A stretch of DNA of 64,000 nucleotides, taken from assembly GCA_964648795.1 (NCBI GenBank), contig CAZYMB010000002.1, positions 3,643 to 67,642 on the forward strand, written 5' to 3'. Shown in pieces: positions 5,009 through 11,900 of the stretch. Numbering within the stretch: the stretch's first letter is position 1; each line of letters begins with the position of its first letter. This stretch comes from an uncultured Acidimicrobiaceae bacterium. GTDB lineage: Bacteria; Actinomycetota; Acidimicrobiia; Acidimicrobiales; SZUA-35. The translations under genes and the position numbers were made by a program. Under the pieces are notes generated by a model, which was given only the letters and a program-made list of their open reading frames with translations, was not told where the DNA came from and made no database searches.

Positions 5009-5992
5009 TTAGCTAGAAAGTGCTCTGGCTACGTCCTTGGCGAAGTAGGTCAGAATAAATGATGCCCCGGCACGCTTGATAGAGGTCAGTGTTTCCCACA
5101 TTAGGGCGTCTCCGTCGACCCAGCCGTTGGCTGCTGCTGCTTTTATCATGGCGTACTCGCCACTCACTTGGTATGCCGCTACTGGGCAGTTAACTTCGCT
5201 TCTTATCTTTGCGATTACATCTAGGTATGCAAGCGCTGGTTTAACCATGACCATGTCTGCGCCTTCAAGAATGTCTAGCTCAACTTCGACGGAAGACTCA
5301 TTCGTGTTGTGCCAGTCCTGTTGGTAGGCCTTGCGGTTTCCGCCGCCAGCTATCTGGACATTAACAGCATCACGGAATGGCCCGTAGAAAGAGCTAGCGA
5401 ACTTGGCTGAGTAGGCAAGTATTGGAAGATCAACAAACCCTTCGCCATCTAGTGCTTTACGAATGGCGCCTACTTGGCCATCCATCATTCCCGACGGAGC
5501 AATTACTTGGGCTCCTGCTCTTGCTTGAGCGAGTGCTACTTCTGCATAAAGACCAATAGTTTCGTCGTTGTTGATAGTTCCATCTTTTTCAACGATGCCG
5601 CAGTGGCCGTGGTCGGTGTATTCGTCGAGACAAAGGTCTGACATGATTGAGATTTCAGAACCGAACTTTGCTGAAATTTCTGACAACGCTACTTGGACTA
5701 CACCATCAGGGTTCCAAGCCTCAGAACCAACAGCGTCTTTGTTTTTTGGCAGACCGAACAAAATAATTCCTGGAACACCGAGCTCCACAAGTTCTGCAAC
5801 TTCATTAAGCAGCGAGGTTTGGGTGTGTTGAAAAACTCCAGGCAAAGATGAGACTTCTGCTGGCTCTGTCAAGGTTTCTGAAACAAAGAGAGGAGCTACT
5901 AAATCGGACACACCAATGTTTGTTTCTGCGACCAATCTACGAATCGATTCGGTTGATCTAAGTCTGCGGGGGCGGAAGTCTGGGTAAGCCAT
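5009..5992 (-). CDS. hemB: Porphobilinogen synthase (delta-aminolevulinate dehydratase)
   Basis: The N-terminus FRPRRLRSTESIRRLVAET is typical. The length is 327 aa, and MVKPALAYLDVI and SGEYAM motifs are present. It lies next to hemD and hemC. Confidence 0.9.
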   Translation of the reverse strand: MAYPDFRPRRLRSTESIRRLVAETNIGVSDLVAPLFVSETLTEPAEVSSLPGVFQHTQTSLLNEVAELVELGVPGIILFGLPKNKDAVGSEAWNPDGVVQVALSEISAKFGSEISIMSDLCLDEYTDHGHCGIVEKDGTINNDETIGLYAEVALAQARAGAQVIAPSGMMDGQVGAIRKALDGEGFVDLPILAYSAKFASSFYGPFRDAVNVQIAGGGNRKAYQQDWHNTNESSVEVELDILEGADMVMVKPALAYLDVIAKIRSEVNCPVAAYQVSGEYAMIKAAAANGWVDGDALMWETLTSIKRAGASFILTYFAKDVARALSS

Positions 5993-6003
5993 GAAAGCTC
6001 AGC

Positions 6004-6711
6004 CTACCTGGGCATTGATGAGAGCCAATTCTTGAGCTGGACTAAAAGCTCGATATCAGAACCCATATCAGCAATAAAATCGGCAGCAAAATCCAGCCGC
6101 TCGAGATGAGCTGCCGTTGTATACCCTATTACACCAATATTTCCCTTGTACGAACTGAGAAACCCATCTGCGGCTTCGATTGCACTCGGACTAGCGAAGA
6201 ATACGGCAGAACTCGAGTTTAAAGTGGCTTGCTCCTCTTCTGAAATAGGGATCGAAACATTTTTGTAGACCTCTCTGGTCTCAACTGCAGCACCAGAACC
6301 TGCACATAGGTGAGCTATTTGTGAATCAGACGATGAACCTTGCAGTACAAACACTTTGTTTGATTCTTCTAAACAAGCGACAGCTTCGACAGCCAAAGTC
6401 TTTCCATCAGGATTAGAAGCAACTTGAATCTGGTCGAAACCACCAGTGCGCAGCTTTGCGCCAAGGCGTTCAGAAAGGACAGCGAAACTACTATTTTGAA
6501 AATCTTTTGCATGGGCCAAGACATAGTCAACGGCATAACTAGAAGAGCAAACAACGAGACGACTATTTCCACGAAGCCACGTCGGCTCGTCATCTGAGAT
6601 TGAAATCTCAATCAGCGGAAGGTGCTCGACACTGAAGCCATCGGCAATAAGGTCGCCACAAAGACTACCTAACGATCTACCCGCATGAGTTAAAACTAGA
6701 TCTACGCTCAC
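6004..6711 (-). CDS. hemD: Uroporphyrinogen-III synthase
   Basis: The 235-aa protein sits between hemC and hemB. It shows the two-lobed HemD pattern (VVCSSSYAVDYV... and AVFFASPSAIEA...). Sequence conservation is weak, as is usual for this family. Confidence 0.65.
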   Translation of the reverse strand: MSVDLVLTHAGRSLGSLCGDLIADGFSVEHLPLIEISISDDEPTWLRGNSRLVVCSSSYAVDYVLAHAKDFQNSSFAVLSERLGAKLRTGGFDQIQVASNPDGKTLAVEAVACLEESNKVFVLQGSSSDSQIAHLCAGSGAAVETREVYKNVSIPISEEEQATLNSSSAVFFASPSAIEAADGFLSSYKGNIGVIGYTTAAHLERLDFAADFIADMGSDIELLVQLKNWLSSMPR

Positions 6712-6715
6712 AGGC

Positions 6716-7582
6716 CTAGTCTAAGTCGGCTACGAGAGCCTTGGCGAGGGTGTTGCCCACATCGTCGGCTGTAGAGCCAGCGGCTTCGCTATGAGCAAAC
6801 TTTGATTCTCCGTCGCTTAGGAAGCCAAGTATTGAGATTTGGTCGCCGTCTATTGTGGCATGAGCACCACCTGGAAGATCACAATTGCCGTCTAGTGCAG
6901 TAAGAAAAGCTCGCTCGGCATCTACTGCCAGCTGTGTTTCACGATGGTTTATCATTGCACATAGCTCAAGAGTTGAAACATCATCTGATCTTGTTTCGAC
7001 TGCAATTGCAGCTTGTCCAACCTGAGGCACAAAGTCTTCTAATGGAAGAACGTCGACAACTTCGGGCTCTCTACCCAGGCGAGTGAGCGCACAGTATGCC
7101 ATCACAATAGCGTCCACCTCATCAAGCTTCATGAGCCTTGTGTCTATGTTGCCACGCAACTCGACAAAGTTAAGATCCGGTCTGCGCTCCAAGAGTTGTG
7201 CACGTCGACGCGCTGACCCGGTCGCAATAGTTGCACCCTTAGCTAGACCATCGAGCGTTGAACCAATAAGGCAGTCTCTGGCGTCGCCTCGCTCTATATA
7301 GCCTGCGATTGAAAGACCAGGCACCTCAACGGCCTGCATATCTTTTGATGAGTGAACGGCTATGTCTGCTTCGCCTGCAAGTACCAAATTCTGAACCTCT
7401 TTACAGAATGCACCCTTGCCAGCAAATGAAGAAATAGGAATTGTTAAGTCTTTGTCAACTTTGGTTTCAACACCAACCATTCGTGGTTCGATCGAAGGGT
7501 CAGCCGCAACGAGGGCTTTGGCGACAGCTTTTGCCTGCCACATTGCCAATGAACTTCGTCTTGTCGCTATACGAACAATCAT
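6716..7582 (-). CDS. hemC: Hydroxymethylbilane synthase (porphobilinogen deaminase)
   Basis: IRIATRRSSLAMWQAKAV, VHSSKDM and RGNIDTRL motifs are present. The likely start is the MIVRIATR Met at 7582 rather than the ORF maximum at 7612. Confidence 0.9.
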   Translation of the reverse strand: MIVRIATRRSSLAMWQAKAVAKALVAADPSIEPRMVGVETKVDKDLTIPISSFAGKGAFCKEVQNLVLAGEADIAVHSSKDMQAVEVPGLSIAGYIERGDARDCLIGSTLDGLAKGATIATGSARRRAQLLERRPDLNFVELRGNIDTRLMKLDEVDAIVMAYCALTRLGREPEVVDVLPLEDFVPQVGQAAIAVETRSDDVSTLELCAMINHRETQLAVDAERAFLTALDGNCDLPGGAHATIDGDQISILGFLSDGESKFAHSEAAGSTADDVGNTLAKALVADLD

Positions 7583-7760
7583 GTGTCTAGTTCCGTGATT
7601 CGCACATGACAAAGGCTACGCCTCAGAACCGCAAAAACCGCTTACAGAACTAGTGTTTGAGCACTTTGGAGTGCCAACTAGGCGAGCACCAGAACTTGAA
7701 CTAGGAAAGCCCCCAGAATTAGGGCTAAAAGGAGTGCGAGCGTTATTACTACAGAAAGTC

Positions 7761-8579
7761 TCATTGCTTAATCTCAACGTGGGTCGACGAGCCTGATTCT
7801 AGCGTTGCGGCTGCTATCTGAACGTGTGCGCCAACCAAAATGCCGGCAATCTCGGCTGCATTAGCCCGCAATGCTGCGATCGATACCAAGCCCGACGAGT
7901 TAGGCAACACACCAACTTCTCCCTCAGCCAATTCAGAAATCGCATTTACTGCTTTCATTACCGAACTCGATTTGTCGACAGTTACTTCGACAGTTGCGCC
8001 AAGCTTAGCCACATGCTCGCCTTCCAAGTTTAGGTGGATGTTGCCGAACCGATCTATCCAAAGCACCTGAGCATCAACACTTCCATCTTCTCGAATCTCG
8101 GCCACTGGCATAAGTTGTGGTACAAGTGTTGAGCTATCGATTTGTTTTCCTAGCTCGTTCGCCGGTGTCCCCGCCGCAAGTTTGGCTACAACTGGTGCCA
8201 TGATGTCTCGTGACTTGGAGACACCAACAGAAGAATCAAATTCGATCTCGAAGGCGTTGGTTGCTCCCCCAACTAAAGCAACAGCTGCTGCCATTACCCC
8301 GTTATCGGGGCCAACAAGATAGGACTGGCCGTCTCCAACTTCGACTATTACTGGTCTCCCATCGTGAGGGTCCACCATGCACATAACTATTCCTGGTTGA
8401 AGAAAGTCAACTGAGCGAGCCAAGACATAGGATGCTTCGTTTGTGGCAAATGGAGTGACATCGTGTGTTAGGTCAACAATGTTTGCAAGCGGTGCAAACT
8501 CGGCAATAACAGATTTAATCTGGCCGACTTGTCCGTCAGCCGAGCCCAGGTCTGAAATTAGAGTGATTGTATTAGCCAC
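7761..8579 (-). CDS. SAM hydroxide adenosyltransferase family protein (DUF62; chlorinase/fluorinase-like)
   Basis: The N-terminus ITLISDLGSADGQVGQIKSVI...IVDLTHDV...MVDPHDG matches the family signature as I remember it. Confidence 0.7.
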   Translation of the reverse strand: MANTITLISDLGSADGQVGQIKSVIAEFAPLANIVDLTHDVTPFATNEASYVLARSVDFLQPGIVMCMVDPHDGRPVIVEVGDGQSYLVGPDNGVMAAAVALVGGATNAFEIEFDSSVGVSKSRDIMAPVVAKLAAGTPANELGKQIDSSTLVPQLMPVAEIREDGSVDAQVLWIDRFGNIHLNLEGEHVAKLGATVEVTVDKSSSVMKAVNAISELAEGEVGVLPNSSGLVSIAALRANAAEIAGILVGAHVQIAAATLESGSSTHVEIKQ

Positions 8580-8596
8580 AGAAATAGGATTCTAGG

Positions 8597-9136
8597 CTAC
8601 TTTCTGAATGCGTCCTCAGTTGTGGCTGCACCACTGGCGTAGCGGCCACCAATTTCACGTTGGATGCCATCAATCTTTTCGTGAAGTTCACGGCGCCCAC
8701 CAGATAGGTCCTCTTCGAATGACTTTAGTGAAGCCAAATGCTCGTTGAGATCTTGTTCTGAAGCGTCACCAATACTGGAGAGCTGGCTTGCTGAGATTAA
8801 GCTATCGAGCTTTGAGATAAGTTCGTGTGCAACTGGTCCTGGCTCGTTGATAGTTAGCCGGCCACTTCGAGAAGCGGCTGGGGCATCCGCCAAAATATCT
8901 GGTAGCTCGAACAGCACCTCAGTTGCATCCACTTCTGTGGCTGCTTCACGGTTTTCTCGGTTAGCTACTTCGTGACCGACAATATCCATACGGCCTTGAG
9001 TAAGTCGGCGAACTAAAGATAGATCTGTTTCGGCGCCCTGTAGTTGAGTTCTCATCTCACGGAGTTGAGGCAACTCTGCACCCGCTAGGTCAGAATGAAT
9101 AGAGTCTTCGAGTAATTGGCTTATTGCTTGTATCAC
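8597..9136 (-). CDS. RsiG-like coiled-coil protein (putative c-di-GMP-binding anti-sigma factor family)
   Basis: The protein has two copies of the E-x3-S-x2-R-x3-Q-x3-D type motif. The first, ETDLSLVRRLTQGRMD (aa 36-51), matches exactly. The second, EEDLSGGRRELHEKID (aa 141-156), has Q replaced by H. The size (179 aa) and helical character also fit. Confidence 0.55.
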   Translation of the reverse strand: MIQAISQLLEDSIHSDLAGAELPQLREMRTQLQGAETDLSLVRRLTQGRMDIVGHEVANRENREAATEVDATEVLFELPDILADAPAASRSGRLTINEPGPVAHELISKLDSLISASQLSSIGDASEQDLNEHLASLKSFEEDLSGGRRELHEKIDGIQREIGGRYASGAATTEDAFRK

Positions 9137-9172
9137 TCAACCAAGCTTAGCATTCACACCGATTGTGGCTTG

Positions 9173-10126
9173 CTATGCCTGCCCTGCAAGCTCTAGGACG
9201 ATCATGATCCCAAGCCAAATAGGAGCTGCCAGTAAGTATGAGTCCAAACGACGAAGCGCTGGCGCCCAAGATGTAGGCCTTGGAAGAAGAATCGATGCAA
9301 ACATCTGTCCGATGATTCCACTGATACCGGTTATCAAACCAAGGACCGCAAAGAACACCAAGTCACTTGGTAGCGCTGCGGGTGGAAACAAGAAGATGCC
9401 GAGGGTGACTACTACTAAGGCAATAAAGCCAGCTATTGGGCCTTCGAATGCGTTGTGCGCACCCGAACCAACAATAAAATCACCAATTTCGTACGCAGAA
9501 ATAACCAGTATGAGAGCGATAAAGACTTCGAAACCTGACCCTACTTCGACTTCTCTCACCGCAATAGTGATGGCACTGGCTGCAGCTATTCCTACTGGGA
9601 AAATAGACCTGATCATTATTCCCATTACTTGCGCAAAGGTCTTTGCTCCGTCCTTTGTGAGCGCTGCTCCGACTAGAACCATGACAAATGCTGCTAAGGC
9701 TCCCACCGGTATCGCCACAAGCCCAAAGAAAGAACTAAACGCTAGAAGGAACGCCCCAAGCCCTGCTGCAGAGCGACTCTCAGCCGCAGAGCCGAGCCAA
9801 GTGTTTGCAATCTGCAAACCAGCTAGCCCGGCAACTGTTGAAAACACAAGTGCGATAAACGGAGCGGCAAACTGGGCTTGAGAAAACAGAATTAGCGCAG
9901 ATGGAACAAGAAGCACAAGGCCAAACCAAATAATACCGAGTGTAACTTTTGGGCCATCTGTCGAGTATGGGATAGCGAGTCTTGATTGGTTCCACCTTTT
10001 GTGGCGAGCCATATCTTCTTGTCGTGCTTTGTCAGAACGACTCTGAGCTCGACGAGACTGAGTTCTCATCTTTGGGCCCGTTGGCACCTTCGGTGGAGGC
10101 TGTCGATTCCCTGGATGCTGTGCCAC
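9173..10126 (-). CDS. Polytopic membrane protein, divergent CdsA (CTP-transferase 1)-like
   Basis: A basic disordered N-terminus is followed by about 8 hydrophobic segments. The C-terminal RRLDSYLLAAP resembles the DRxDSxxxAAP end of phosphatidate cytidylyltransferases, but the PGHGG-type motif is not evident. The GTG start abuts the moaD-like stop, and a later Met start is possible. Confidence 0.4.
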   Translation of the reverse strand: MAQHPGNRQPPPKVPTGPKMRTQSRRAQSRSDKARQEDMARHKRWNQSRLAIPYSTDGPKVTLGIIWFGLVLLVPSALILFSQAQFAAPFIALVFSTVAGLAGLQIANTWLGSAAESRSAAGLGAFLLAFSSFFGLVAIPVGALAAFVMVLVGAALTKDGAKTFAQVMGIMIRSIFPVGIAAASAITIAVREVEVGSGFEVFIALILVISAYEIGDFIVGSGAHNAFEGPIAGFIALVVVTLGIFLFPPAALPSDLVFFAVLGLITGISGIIGQMFASILLPRPTSWAPALRRLDSYLLAAPIWLGIMIVLELAGQA

Positions 10127-10363
10127 TTATCCCCCAGACACCGGAGGTAGAACGGCGACTTCGTCACCTGCTGTTAGATCTCTATTCAAAGGAGCTGATG
10201 AACCGTTAACCCAAACCTGTGACTGTTTCAGTAGAGTCTCGAATTCGTCGCCGTAAAGTTTGATGAGTTCAGCTGAAATCTCGCTGACTGTTGAACCAAC
10301 AATCTCGATTTCTGATTTAGCCGCTATTTCTGCCGCTTGTGCGAATAACTTTACTGAGACCAC
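10127..10363 (-). CDS. MoaD/ThiS-family sulfur-carrier (ubiquitin-like) protein
   Basis: The 78-aa protein ends in DEVAVLPPVSGG, the typical MoaD C-terminal GG. Confidence 0.75.
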   Translation of the reverse strand: MVSVKLFAQAAEIAAKSEIEIVGSTVSEISAELIKLYGDEFETLLKQSQVWVNGSSAPLNRDLTAGDEVAVLPPVSGG

Positions 10364-10443
10364 TTAACCAGTGTGGCACAGCAAAGCGCTAATTCCTCTG
10401 CGCGAATACCCTTAAGAGCCGCTATTTCTAGCTAATTACGCCC

Positions 10444-11049
10444 TTAAAGGGCGCTTTCTTTGCCGCCACCGGTGGATATATCGCTATCTATTAGCTCCAT
10501 CCGATCCCCAATTTCAATATTGTCCTCTGTTACCGTCACCCAGATTCCGCCAAGGTTGCTGATTCTGCCACGCTCTAGGTCGTGGTATTTCTCTAAAGTT
10601 ATGATTATCCCCGAGTGAGCAACGACGAGGACTTGAGCTCCTTCGAACTGTTTTGAGATCTTAAGAAGGCCTGTAAATACTCGAGCAAGAAAGGCGCTGT
10701 CGGGTTCCCAACCTTCGGGGCGGTAGCCAGACGCCTCCCAGTCTGGAGCAATCTCTTTGATCTCAGCTCGAGTCTTACCAGACCACTCCCCAACATCTCG
10801 CTCTACAAGCTCTGGCACCTCTAAGACGGGGCCAATCCCAGCCTTATCTGCAATGAGATCAGCTGTTTCTTTGGCTCTGATTAGTGTTGAGCTAGCTATC
10901 AAATCGATTTGGCCTATACCCGAAGCTGCGGCCTGGGCTTGAGTGCGCCCGAGGTCAGAAAGGGGCGCGTCGGCTCGGCCTTGCCAGCGGTGCTCGATAT
11001 TCCAAGTTGATTGTCCATGCCTTACCAGCAGGATTCGGGTTGCAGCCAC
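10444..11049 (-). CDS. Histidine phosphatase family protein (phosphoglycerate mutase-like)
   Basis: The catalytic RHG motif is present in ILLVRHGQSTWN, and a later VVAHSG histidine is also present. Confidence 0.8.
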   Translation of the reverse strand: MAATRILLVRHGQSTWNIEHRWQGRADAPLSDLGRTQAQAAASGIGQIDLIASSTLIRAKETADLIADKAGIGPVLEVPELVERDVGEWSGKTRAEIKEIAPDWEASGYRPEGWEPDSAFLARVFTGLLKISKQFEGAQVLVVAHSGIIITLEKYHDLERGRISNLGGIWVTVTEDNIEIGDRMELIDSDISTGGGKESAL

Positions 11050-11108
11050 ATCGACACGTTATCGCATCAACATGTGATCGTACGACTTTGGTCTATCCCA
11101 GGTATCGT

Positions 11109-11900
11109 ATGAGGGTGCCAAACACAGGAATTAACCCTTGGAATAGAGCCCTAGTCACAGGAGCATCTTCTGGCATTGGCCGCGACATGTGCAAAATCCT
11201 GAGCGCCCAGGGAACTGACTTGATTATTGTAGCTAGACGCCAAGATCGTCTAGAAGAATTGGCCGCCCAGCTAGAAACCGACGTCGAAATTCTAGTTGCG
11301 GATTTAACTAAGCAGTCCGATATCGAGGCAGTCGCTAAGAGATTACAAGATGAATCCAAACCGGTTGATCTTCTGATCAACAATGCAGGCCTCGGCAACT
11401 TTGGTACTTTCACAGACCTTGACTTAGATGCAGAGAAAACTGTTATCCAAGTAAACGTCGATGCTCTTCATACGCTTTGCCATGTTGCAGCTAACACCAT
11501 GAAAGAACGTAAGCACGGTTGGATCCTGAACGTAAGTTCGATCTCTGGTTTCGCACCGTATCCTCGCTCTGCAACATATGGCGGGACTAAAGCCTTCGTA
11601 CTCAATTTCTCTGAAGCTCTTCAAGCTGAACTTTCAAAAGATGGTGTTGTAGTTTCAGCGTTGTGTCCTGGGCCAACTCGTACAGAGTTTCAAAGCAACG
11701 CCAAGGTCGACCTAGGCGTGCTGCCGGACTTTCTAATTACAGAGTCGTTAGAAGTTGCAGCAATTGGTTTGTCAGATCTGGCAAAGAAAAAGGCAGTCAG
11801 CGTTCCAGGAACTTCAATGAAAGCAACTCGAGTAATAATCAAGTTGCTTCCAGGTAGCGCTATCCGAAAGATAAGCGACTACATAAGTTCGAAGCGTTAA
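11109..11900 (+). CDS. SDR-family oxidoreductase
   Basis: ALVTGASSGIGRD (TGxxxGIG), NNAG, and a catalytic S...YGGTK motif are present. I moved the start to MRVPNTG because the longer ORF overlaps the divergent phosphatase gene. Confidence 0.8.
   Translation: MRVPNTGINPWNRALVTGASSGIGRDMCKILSAQGTDLIIVARRQDRLEELAAQLETDVEILVADLTKQSDIEAVAKRLQDESKPVDLLINNAGLGNFGTFTDLDLDAEKTVIQVNVDALHTLCHVAANTMKERKHGWILNVSSISGFAPYPRSATYGGTKAFVLNFSEALQAELSKDGVVVSALCPGPTRTEFQSNAKVDLGVLPDFLITESLEVAAIGLSDLAKKKAVSVPGTSMKATRVIIKLLPGSAIRKISDYISSKR

Follow-up and report, generated by a model that had tools for sequence, protein, structure and literature searches.

Does the minus-strand gene described here encode a c-di-GMP-dependent anti-sigma factor in a small, uncultured member of the Acidimicrobiales, and why does it lie next to a gene for a DUF62 SAM hydroxide adenosyltransferase? 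Both questions are raised by a locus in the window, by which the whole analysed stretch of 64,000 nucleotides is meant (C2:3643-67642 of genome G000). The genome consists of 47 contigs with a total of 1.83 Mb at 48.5% G+C and an estimated completeness of 95%. A sequence-only reading of the locus had described a helical protein of 179 residues with two copies of the signature with which the Streptomyces anti-sigma factor RsiG binds c-di-GMP, and had noted a pairing with the DUF62 gene that it could not explain. The RsiG of S. venezuelae (AmfC) is a c-di-GMP-armed anti-sigma factor of WhiG and is known from the structures 6PFJ and 6PFV (PMC7005675).

Family membership, motifs and predicted fold

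The protein scores 82.6 bits with the Pfam family PF22802 (RsiG-like), for which the cut-off is 27. The match falls into two stretches, one for each half of the protein, and both halves were also recovered in a genome-wide profile scan (61.7 and 29.2 bits). In a phmmer search against PDB sequences, residues 8-176 were aligned with residues 13-174 of the S. venezuelae RsiG chain 6pfj_T with an E-value of 2.4e-17; the RsiG chain of 6PFJ and 6PFV was deposited under the name 'AmfC protein'. A profile search yielded more than 2,000 relatives, all of them with PF22802, and those that bear a name are called 'aerial mycelium formation protein' or 'RsiG family protein'. An NCBIfam search of the 179-residue protein matched no model. 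The start position of the open reading frame agrees with that of the homologs in their alignment. Comparison with the 79% identical ortholog of relative L024 gave a pN of 0.15 and a pS of 0.76, with the synonymous sites saturated, and rsiG is under purifying selection. The RsiG-like identity proposed from the sequence is thus borne out by the Pfam profile, by the alignment to 6pfj_T and by the structural comparison described below. Homology was found over the full length of the protein and extends well beyond both motifs, which supports its assignment as an ordinary member of the known RsiG family. It is part of the twin-motif RsiG group of the Acidimicrobiales that has already been published (PMC8325347).

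The coordinates of the gene, its predicted elements and its neighbours are collected in Table 1. Both motifs were confirmed where the sequence-only reading had placed them, with Gln in the first (residues 36-51) and His in the second (residues 141-156). Motif 1, ETDLSLVRRLTQGRMD, is an exact match to E-x3-S-x2-R-x3-Q-x3-D and stands opposite EADLSYVRRMLQGRID of S. venezuelae RsiG in the phmmer alignment; motif 2, EEDLSGGRRELHEKID, has the same spacing with a histidine (H152) at the [Q/H] position and stands opposite EQQISRRRHHLQRTAD. Residues E36, S40 and D51 of the first motif and E141, S145 and D156 of the second are invariant among the homologs, and the arginine residues R43 and R148 are each present in 121 of 122. 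In the stop-free translation of all six frames of the 1.83-Mb genome (about 896,000 residues), the pattern E-x3-S-x2-R-x3-[QH]-x3-D occurs three times, twice within the rsiG open reading frame, and its presence there is not due to chance. That both motifs are chance matches within an unrelated coiled-coil protein, an idea for which nothing but the short motif speaks, has a next to negligible probability and is refuted by the Pfam profile, the phmmer alignment and the Foldseek results, which give full-length homology in sequence, profile and fold, as well as by the mere three occurrences of the motif in the translated genome.

Table 1. Features of the rsiG locus, with positions counted from the first nucleotide of the window.
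Feature	Position	Strand	Basis or remark
rsiG CDS, twin-motif RsiG-family anti-sigma factor	8597..9136	(-)	179 aa, GTG start, TAG stop
Predicted long helix alpha1, residues 22-66, first arm of antiparallel coiled-coil	8939..9073	(-)	AlphaFold2, pLDDT >90
Predicted c-di-GMP-binding motif 1, helix alpha1	8984..9031	(-)	ETDLSLVRRLTQGRMD, residues 36-51
Predicted long helix alpha5, residues 127-168, second coiled-coil arm, duplicate of alpha1	8633..8758	(-)	AlphaFold2
Predicted c-di-GMP-binding motif 2, helix alpha5	8669..8716	(-)	EEDLSGGRRELHEKID, residues 141-156
DUF62 / SAM hydroxide adenosyltransferase, downstream neighbour	7761..8579	(-)	Pfam SAM_HAT_N and SAM_HAT_C
Gene for 317-aa polytopic membrane protein (memb317), directly upstream of rsiG	9173-10126	(-)	
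MoaD/ThiS-like gene, upstream of rsiG	10127-10363	(-)	ThiS/MoaD family matches

The histidine of the second motif had led to the question whether such a variant still binds the nucleotide. The published motif, E(X)3S(X)2R(X)3[Q/H](X)3D, already includes His, which is able to make the same stacking contact as Gln, and the Conexibacter RsiG with His at the Gln position binds c-di-GMP with a Kd of 25 uM (PMC8325347). The question is therefore largely answered, since His lies inside the published motif and an RsiG with His only is known to bind (PMC8325347). Among the best 122 database homologs, 112 carry His in motif 1 and Gln in motif 2, and the clade of the window protein, with 10 of the 122 sequences, shows the reverse arrangement of Gln in motif 1 and His in motif 2. 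Across the order, the motif-2 position of 24 distinct sequences is His in 14 and Phe in 8, and two further sequences have His in both motifs; the window's family of Acidimicrobiales regularly has His there in motif 2. The variants with Phe at the stacking position of motif 2, such as ERKLSDMRRKLFARID, come from L025-L033 and L052 and fall outside the published motif.

A structural model of the protein was calculated with AlphaFold2 from an alignment of 122 sequences and reached a pLDDT of 85.5 and a pTM of 0.74. Each motif is located on its own long helix in this model, at residues 22-66 and 127-168, in agreement with the earlier proposal that the two motifs occupy separate helices. Shorter helices lie between the long ones, and residues 84-96 are disordered in the model. 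A Foldseek search against the PDB gave significant matches only to 6pfv_T, 6pfv_B and 6pfv_E, all RsiG chains, with E-values of 9e-6 to 2e-5, TM-scores of 0.59-0.67 and 32-33% identity, and the next-best match had an E-value of 0.28. The fold predicted by the model is accordingly that of RsiG, with a linker between the two arms of an antiparallel coiled-coil. The halves containing alpha1 and alpha5 can be aligned without gaps and are identical at 19 of 57 positions (33%, E 9e-6); for the alpha1/alpha5 duplication of S. venezuelae RsiG an identity of 33% has been reported (PMC8325347).

Partner sigma factor, c-di-GMP enzymes and proposed switch

The sequence-only reading had found neither a WhiG/FliA-type sigma factor nor a diguanylate cyclase in the window. 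Genome-wide profile hits agree with this, as none of the GGDEF, EAL or sigma-28 matches of the genome lies inside C2:3643-67642. A search of the whole genome, however, located a WhiG ortholog on a different contig from rsiG (G000:C11:29882-30865), between dprA and rpsB, so that the organism does not lack a WhiG-type sigma factor. This protein scores 267.6 bits with TIGR02479 (cut-off 189.6) and matches the WhiG chain 6pfj_A with an E-value of 1.2e-86. Residues K57 and R62 (6PFJ chain numbering) are kept, as are all of the sigma-4 contacts T235, L236, Y239, E240 and L242 listed in a 2026 preprint, according to which RsiG pairs with sigma factors of the WhiG2 clade (bioRxiv 10.64898/2026.01.14.699351). 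The gene in the window can be named rsiG and the sigma factor gene on contig C11 whiG.

One position of the sigma factor differs. The S. venezuelae Gly61, one of three sigma-2 contacts to c-di-GMP (K57, G61 and R62), is replaced by Ser, and position 61 has been argued to need Gly because any side chain would clash with the c-di-GMP ribose (bioRxiv 10.64898/2026.01.14.699351). The residue is Ser in 21 and Gly in 9 of 30 orthologs of the family, and certain other families have Ser as well. Among the sampled genomes, Ser or Ala at position 61 occurs only together with a Q/H pair of RsiG motifs and never with Q/F or H/H. Phylogeny confounds this association, which bears on the argument about a clash. 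On the simplest reading, Ser61 is tolerated. Together with the His or Phe that motif 2 has at its stacking position, it offers a minor lead on the tolerance of the nucleotide pocket for substitutions. A second sigma-28-like factor is encoded at G000:C2:139967-140614; it reaches 190 bits with the FliA/WhiG model, for which the cut-off is 189.6, and has no K-x3-G-R segment.

RsiG and WhiG co-occur across the Acidimicrobiales. RsiG is present in 53 of the 61 genomes of the order, nearly always with both halves, and twin-motif RsiG had previously been found in three of four Acidimicrobiales species (PMC8325347). Of the eight genomes without RsiG, four also have no WhiG-like match of any kind, one has only a paralogous sigma factor, one has a whiG split in two frames, and the remaining two have an intact whiG ortholog in assemblies that are 91% and 70% complete. 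The split whiG lies in two adjacent frames at G045:C2:158425-159194, and its state in a genome without rsiG may reflect a joint decay of the pair.

The genome was also searched for the enzymes of c-di-GMP turnover, and this machinery was found. There are 12 GGDEF matches, of which five or more have the GGDEF site intact, and seven EAL matches above cut-off, six of which contain the E-x-L-x-R motif, in five cases as EAL. Several of the enzymes are GGDEF-EAL fusion proteins. No HD-GYP domain and no c-di-GMP-I riboswitch (RF01051) were detected in the genome. The c-di-GMP complement is large for a genome of 1.83 Mb. A gene for FlhA (FHIPEP) was not found in the genome; a flagellar role of WhiG was therefore rejected, and the sigma factor does not serve flagella in this organism. 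Three ATPases of the T2SSE type are encoded, and given these, pili are possible.

Promoters of the WhiG type were sought by scanning the whole genome and all upstream regions for sites resembling T(A/C)AA-N15-17-GCCGATAA. The matches to the consensus were not enriched over shuffled sequences (16 versus about 24, and 3 versus 2.5), and no regulon could be defined from them. With relaxed criteria, 11 of 37 matches were intergenic, a figure that is inflated by A+T-rich spacers. No WhiG-type promoter was found within two mismatches before rsiG or its operon. Three perfect TAAA-N15/16-GCCGATA sites, a number no higher than in shuffled sequence, are located at G000:C5:19772-19799, C9:10074-10100 and C11:38284-38310. 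They lie 13-29 nt upstream of genes for a hypothetical Cys-rich protein, a ThuA-like protein and an M50/PDZ site-2 protease, respectively, and the protease gene follows a GGDEF gene about 7.5 kb from whiG. As candidate promoters the three sites are to be taken as leads only.

We consider it most probable, with a likelihood of about 0.86, that the gene is the RsiG ortholog of a small-genome uncultured member of the Acidimicrobiales and that its product is a monomeric twin-motif anti-sigma factor that sequesters WhiG in a c-di-GMP-dependent manner. In the proposed mechanism, alpha1 and alpha5 would pack as an antiparallel coiled-coil with one E(X)3S(X)2R(X)3[Q/H](X)3D motif on each helix, and the two motifs would jointly clamp a c-di-GMP dimer. 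[quoted passage not shown] At high c-di-GMP, produced by the GGDEF enzymes, WhiG would be held inactive, and a decrease of c-di-GMP through the EAL enzymes would set WhiG free to transcribe its regulon. Ser61 in WhiG and the lack of enrichment among the matches to the WhiG-type promoter consensus speak against this explanation. For the window protein, we infer the binding of c-di-GMP, the binding of WhiG and the direction of regulation by analogy, the underlying structures being those of S. venezuelae and Rubrobacter RsiG.

The arrangement of this switch could differ from that mechanism. [quoted passage not shown] The frequency of Ser61 in the family orthologs and its appearance in other families are in line with such a change, as is the occurrence of Ser or Ala61 solely beside the Q/H motif pair in the sampled genomes, and the second sigma factor does just pass the FliA/WhiG model. 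All RsiG residues that contact c-di-GMP are nevertheless conserved, and WhiG has retained K57, R62 and all five listed sigma-4 contacts. Ser is small and alternates with Gly among close relatives that have kept RsiG, so that it looks like a tolerated variant; its association with the His-containing pair is weakened by the confounding phylogeny, and the second sigma factor is without the K-x3-G-R segment. Rewiring is thus regarded as unlikely, and c-di-GMP-dependent sequestration of WhiG is preferred.

Gene neighbourhood of rsiG

The DUF62 gene starts 17 nt past the rsiG stop codon on the same strand, and the gap described in the sequence-only reading was confirmed at 8580-8596. No terminator-like site was found in this gap, and a scan of positions 5800-11200 for sigma-70 promoters and terminators gave no excess over the shuffled expectation. 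On the upstream side, the 317-residue membrane protein had no family match in family profile searches. The neighbouring genes were compared by tblastn with the corresponding loci of 21 relatives and with 80 more distant rsiG loci from Streptomyces, Pseudonocardiaceae and other taxa.

An RsiG match was found in 19 of the 21 relatives' loci. Of these 19, 14 have memb317 upstream of rsiG and 16 have the MoaD-like gene no more than 3 kb upstream. The MoaD-like gene, memb317 and rsiG therefore form a conserved gene block of the order, which is absent from the 80 distant loci. Two genomes have the MoaD-like gene right next to rsiG. A more far-reaching idea is that the RsiG-WhiG switch of this planktonic lineage, which has no flagella, does not sporulate and has a reduced genome, has drifted away from the Streptomyces model and that the block of MoaD-like gene, membrane protein gene and rsiG is a functional unit as well; we regard this as rather doubtful, if somewhat less so than the rewiring discussed above.

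The downstream side is arranged differently in the relatives. At 14 of the 21 loci, rsiG and DUF62 are roughly 2.7 to 5.4 kb apart, with a distance of about 3 kb in most relatives of the order, and at five loci tblastn found no DUF62. In most loci of this kind, from larger genomes, the interval between rsiG and DUF62 is occupied by a gene for an XRE-type HTH protein, an mshA-like glycosyltransferase gene, a ybjN-like gene and proC. In G001 and G002, genomes of the same genus, proC is the only one of these four genes that remains there, directly after rsiG; in G001 it sits between rsiG and DUF62, and no DUF62 was found at the G002 locus. The window and its 79% identical relative L024 have none of the four between rsiG and DUF62, and among the 21 relatives' loci and the 80 distant loci they are the only places where the two genes are adjacent. 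With an E-value threshold of 1e-5, tblastn against the whole assembly G000 detected no homolog of the proC, ybjN-like or XRE-type HTH genes that flank rsiG in relatives (cf. L039 2939-5950). This absence could mean proline auxotrophy or a gap in the assembly.

None of the 80 distant loci has DUF62 nearby, and the window's neighbours are absent from them with the exception of the HTH gene, which adjoins rsiG at two loci of the Nanopelagicales type and is found 2.7 to 4.7 kb downstream at four more. In the two former cases, both from Nanopelagicales-type MAGs, the XRE-type HTH gene is directly downstream of rsiG (L091 5634-5996 and L095 1209-1562), as it is in most Acidimicrobiales. This distribution suggests that rsiG and the HTH gene are an old neighbourhood that has been lost from the window's genome.

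With four intervening genes in relatives, only proC in the same-genus genomes and none here, the adjacency of rsiG and DUF62 is the endpoint of a stepwise deletion. It is a by-product of gene loss in a shrinking genome and not a functional pair, and the pairing that had remained unexplained is resolved in this way: the adjacency is not conserved and was left behind when the genes in between were deleted. The opposite view, that RsiG and the DUF62 SAM hydrolase form a co-transcribed functional module joining SAM turnover to c-di-GMP signalling, would fit the short same-strand gap without a terminator-like site and the recurrence of the adjacency in L024. It is, however, at odds with the distance of several kilobases in 14 of the 21 loci and the five loci in which DUF62 was not found, with the proC, ybjN-like, mshA and HTH genes that intervene in most of these loci, with the retention of proC directly after rsiG in the same genus, and with the count of zero among the 80 loci from Streptomyces, Pseudonocardiaceae and others. 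A functional pairing was rejected on this synteny and is very improbable. The DUF62 neighbour is to be annotated as context, outside the RsiG switch.

Comparison with known RsiG systems

The window protein belongs to the same family as S. venezuelae RsiG, with which it can be aligned over the full length at about 33% identity. The likeness includes the placement of the motifs on the helices alpha1 and alpha5, the coiled-coil with antiparallel arms and a linker (predicted in the present case) and the 33% identity between the duplicated helices, and it extends to the cognate sigma factor, which is about 60% identical to the S. venezuelae WhiG with the sigma-4 contacts kept. The two systems differ in the second motif, where S. 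venezuelae RsiG has Gln and the window protein His, and at position 61 of WhiG, which is Gly in S. venezuelae and Ser here. They also differ in their hosts, as the window derives from a non-filamentous, small-genome member of the Acidimicrobiales of an aquatic or marine type. The output of the switch can therefore not be the sporulation of aerial hyphae. The gene neighbourhood of rsiG in Streptomyces is entirely different from that in the window.

The RsiG proteins of Rubrobacter radiotolerans and Conexibacter woesei (PDB 7LQ2-7LQ4) have the same c-di-GMP motif as the window protein. They are, however, homodimeric proteins of about 85-118 residues with a single motif, whereas the window protein has 179 residues and two motifs, and in phmmer the single-motif RsiG gave a weak match to it that covered alpha1 alone (E 0.34). 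Both occur in unicellular hosts, in which the switch governs type IV pili.

The Acidimicrobiales RsiG proteins of Schumacher et al. 2021 (PMC8325347) share both the order and the twin-motif architecture with the window protein. In that study the Q/H exception was located in motif 1, on alpha1, whereas the position that varies within this order is that of motif 2. The switch of c-di-GMP, RsiG and WhiG, already reported for the Acidimicrobiales, would survive even in a streamlined, flagellum-less genome of 1.83 Mb.
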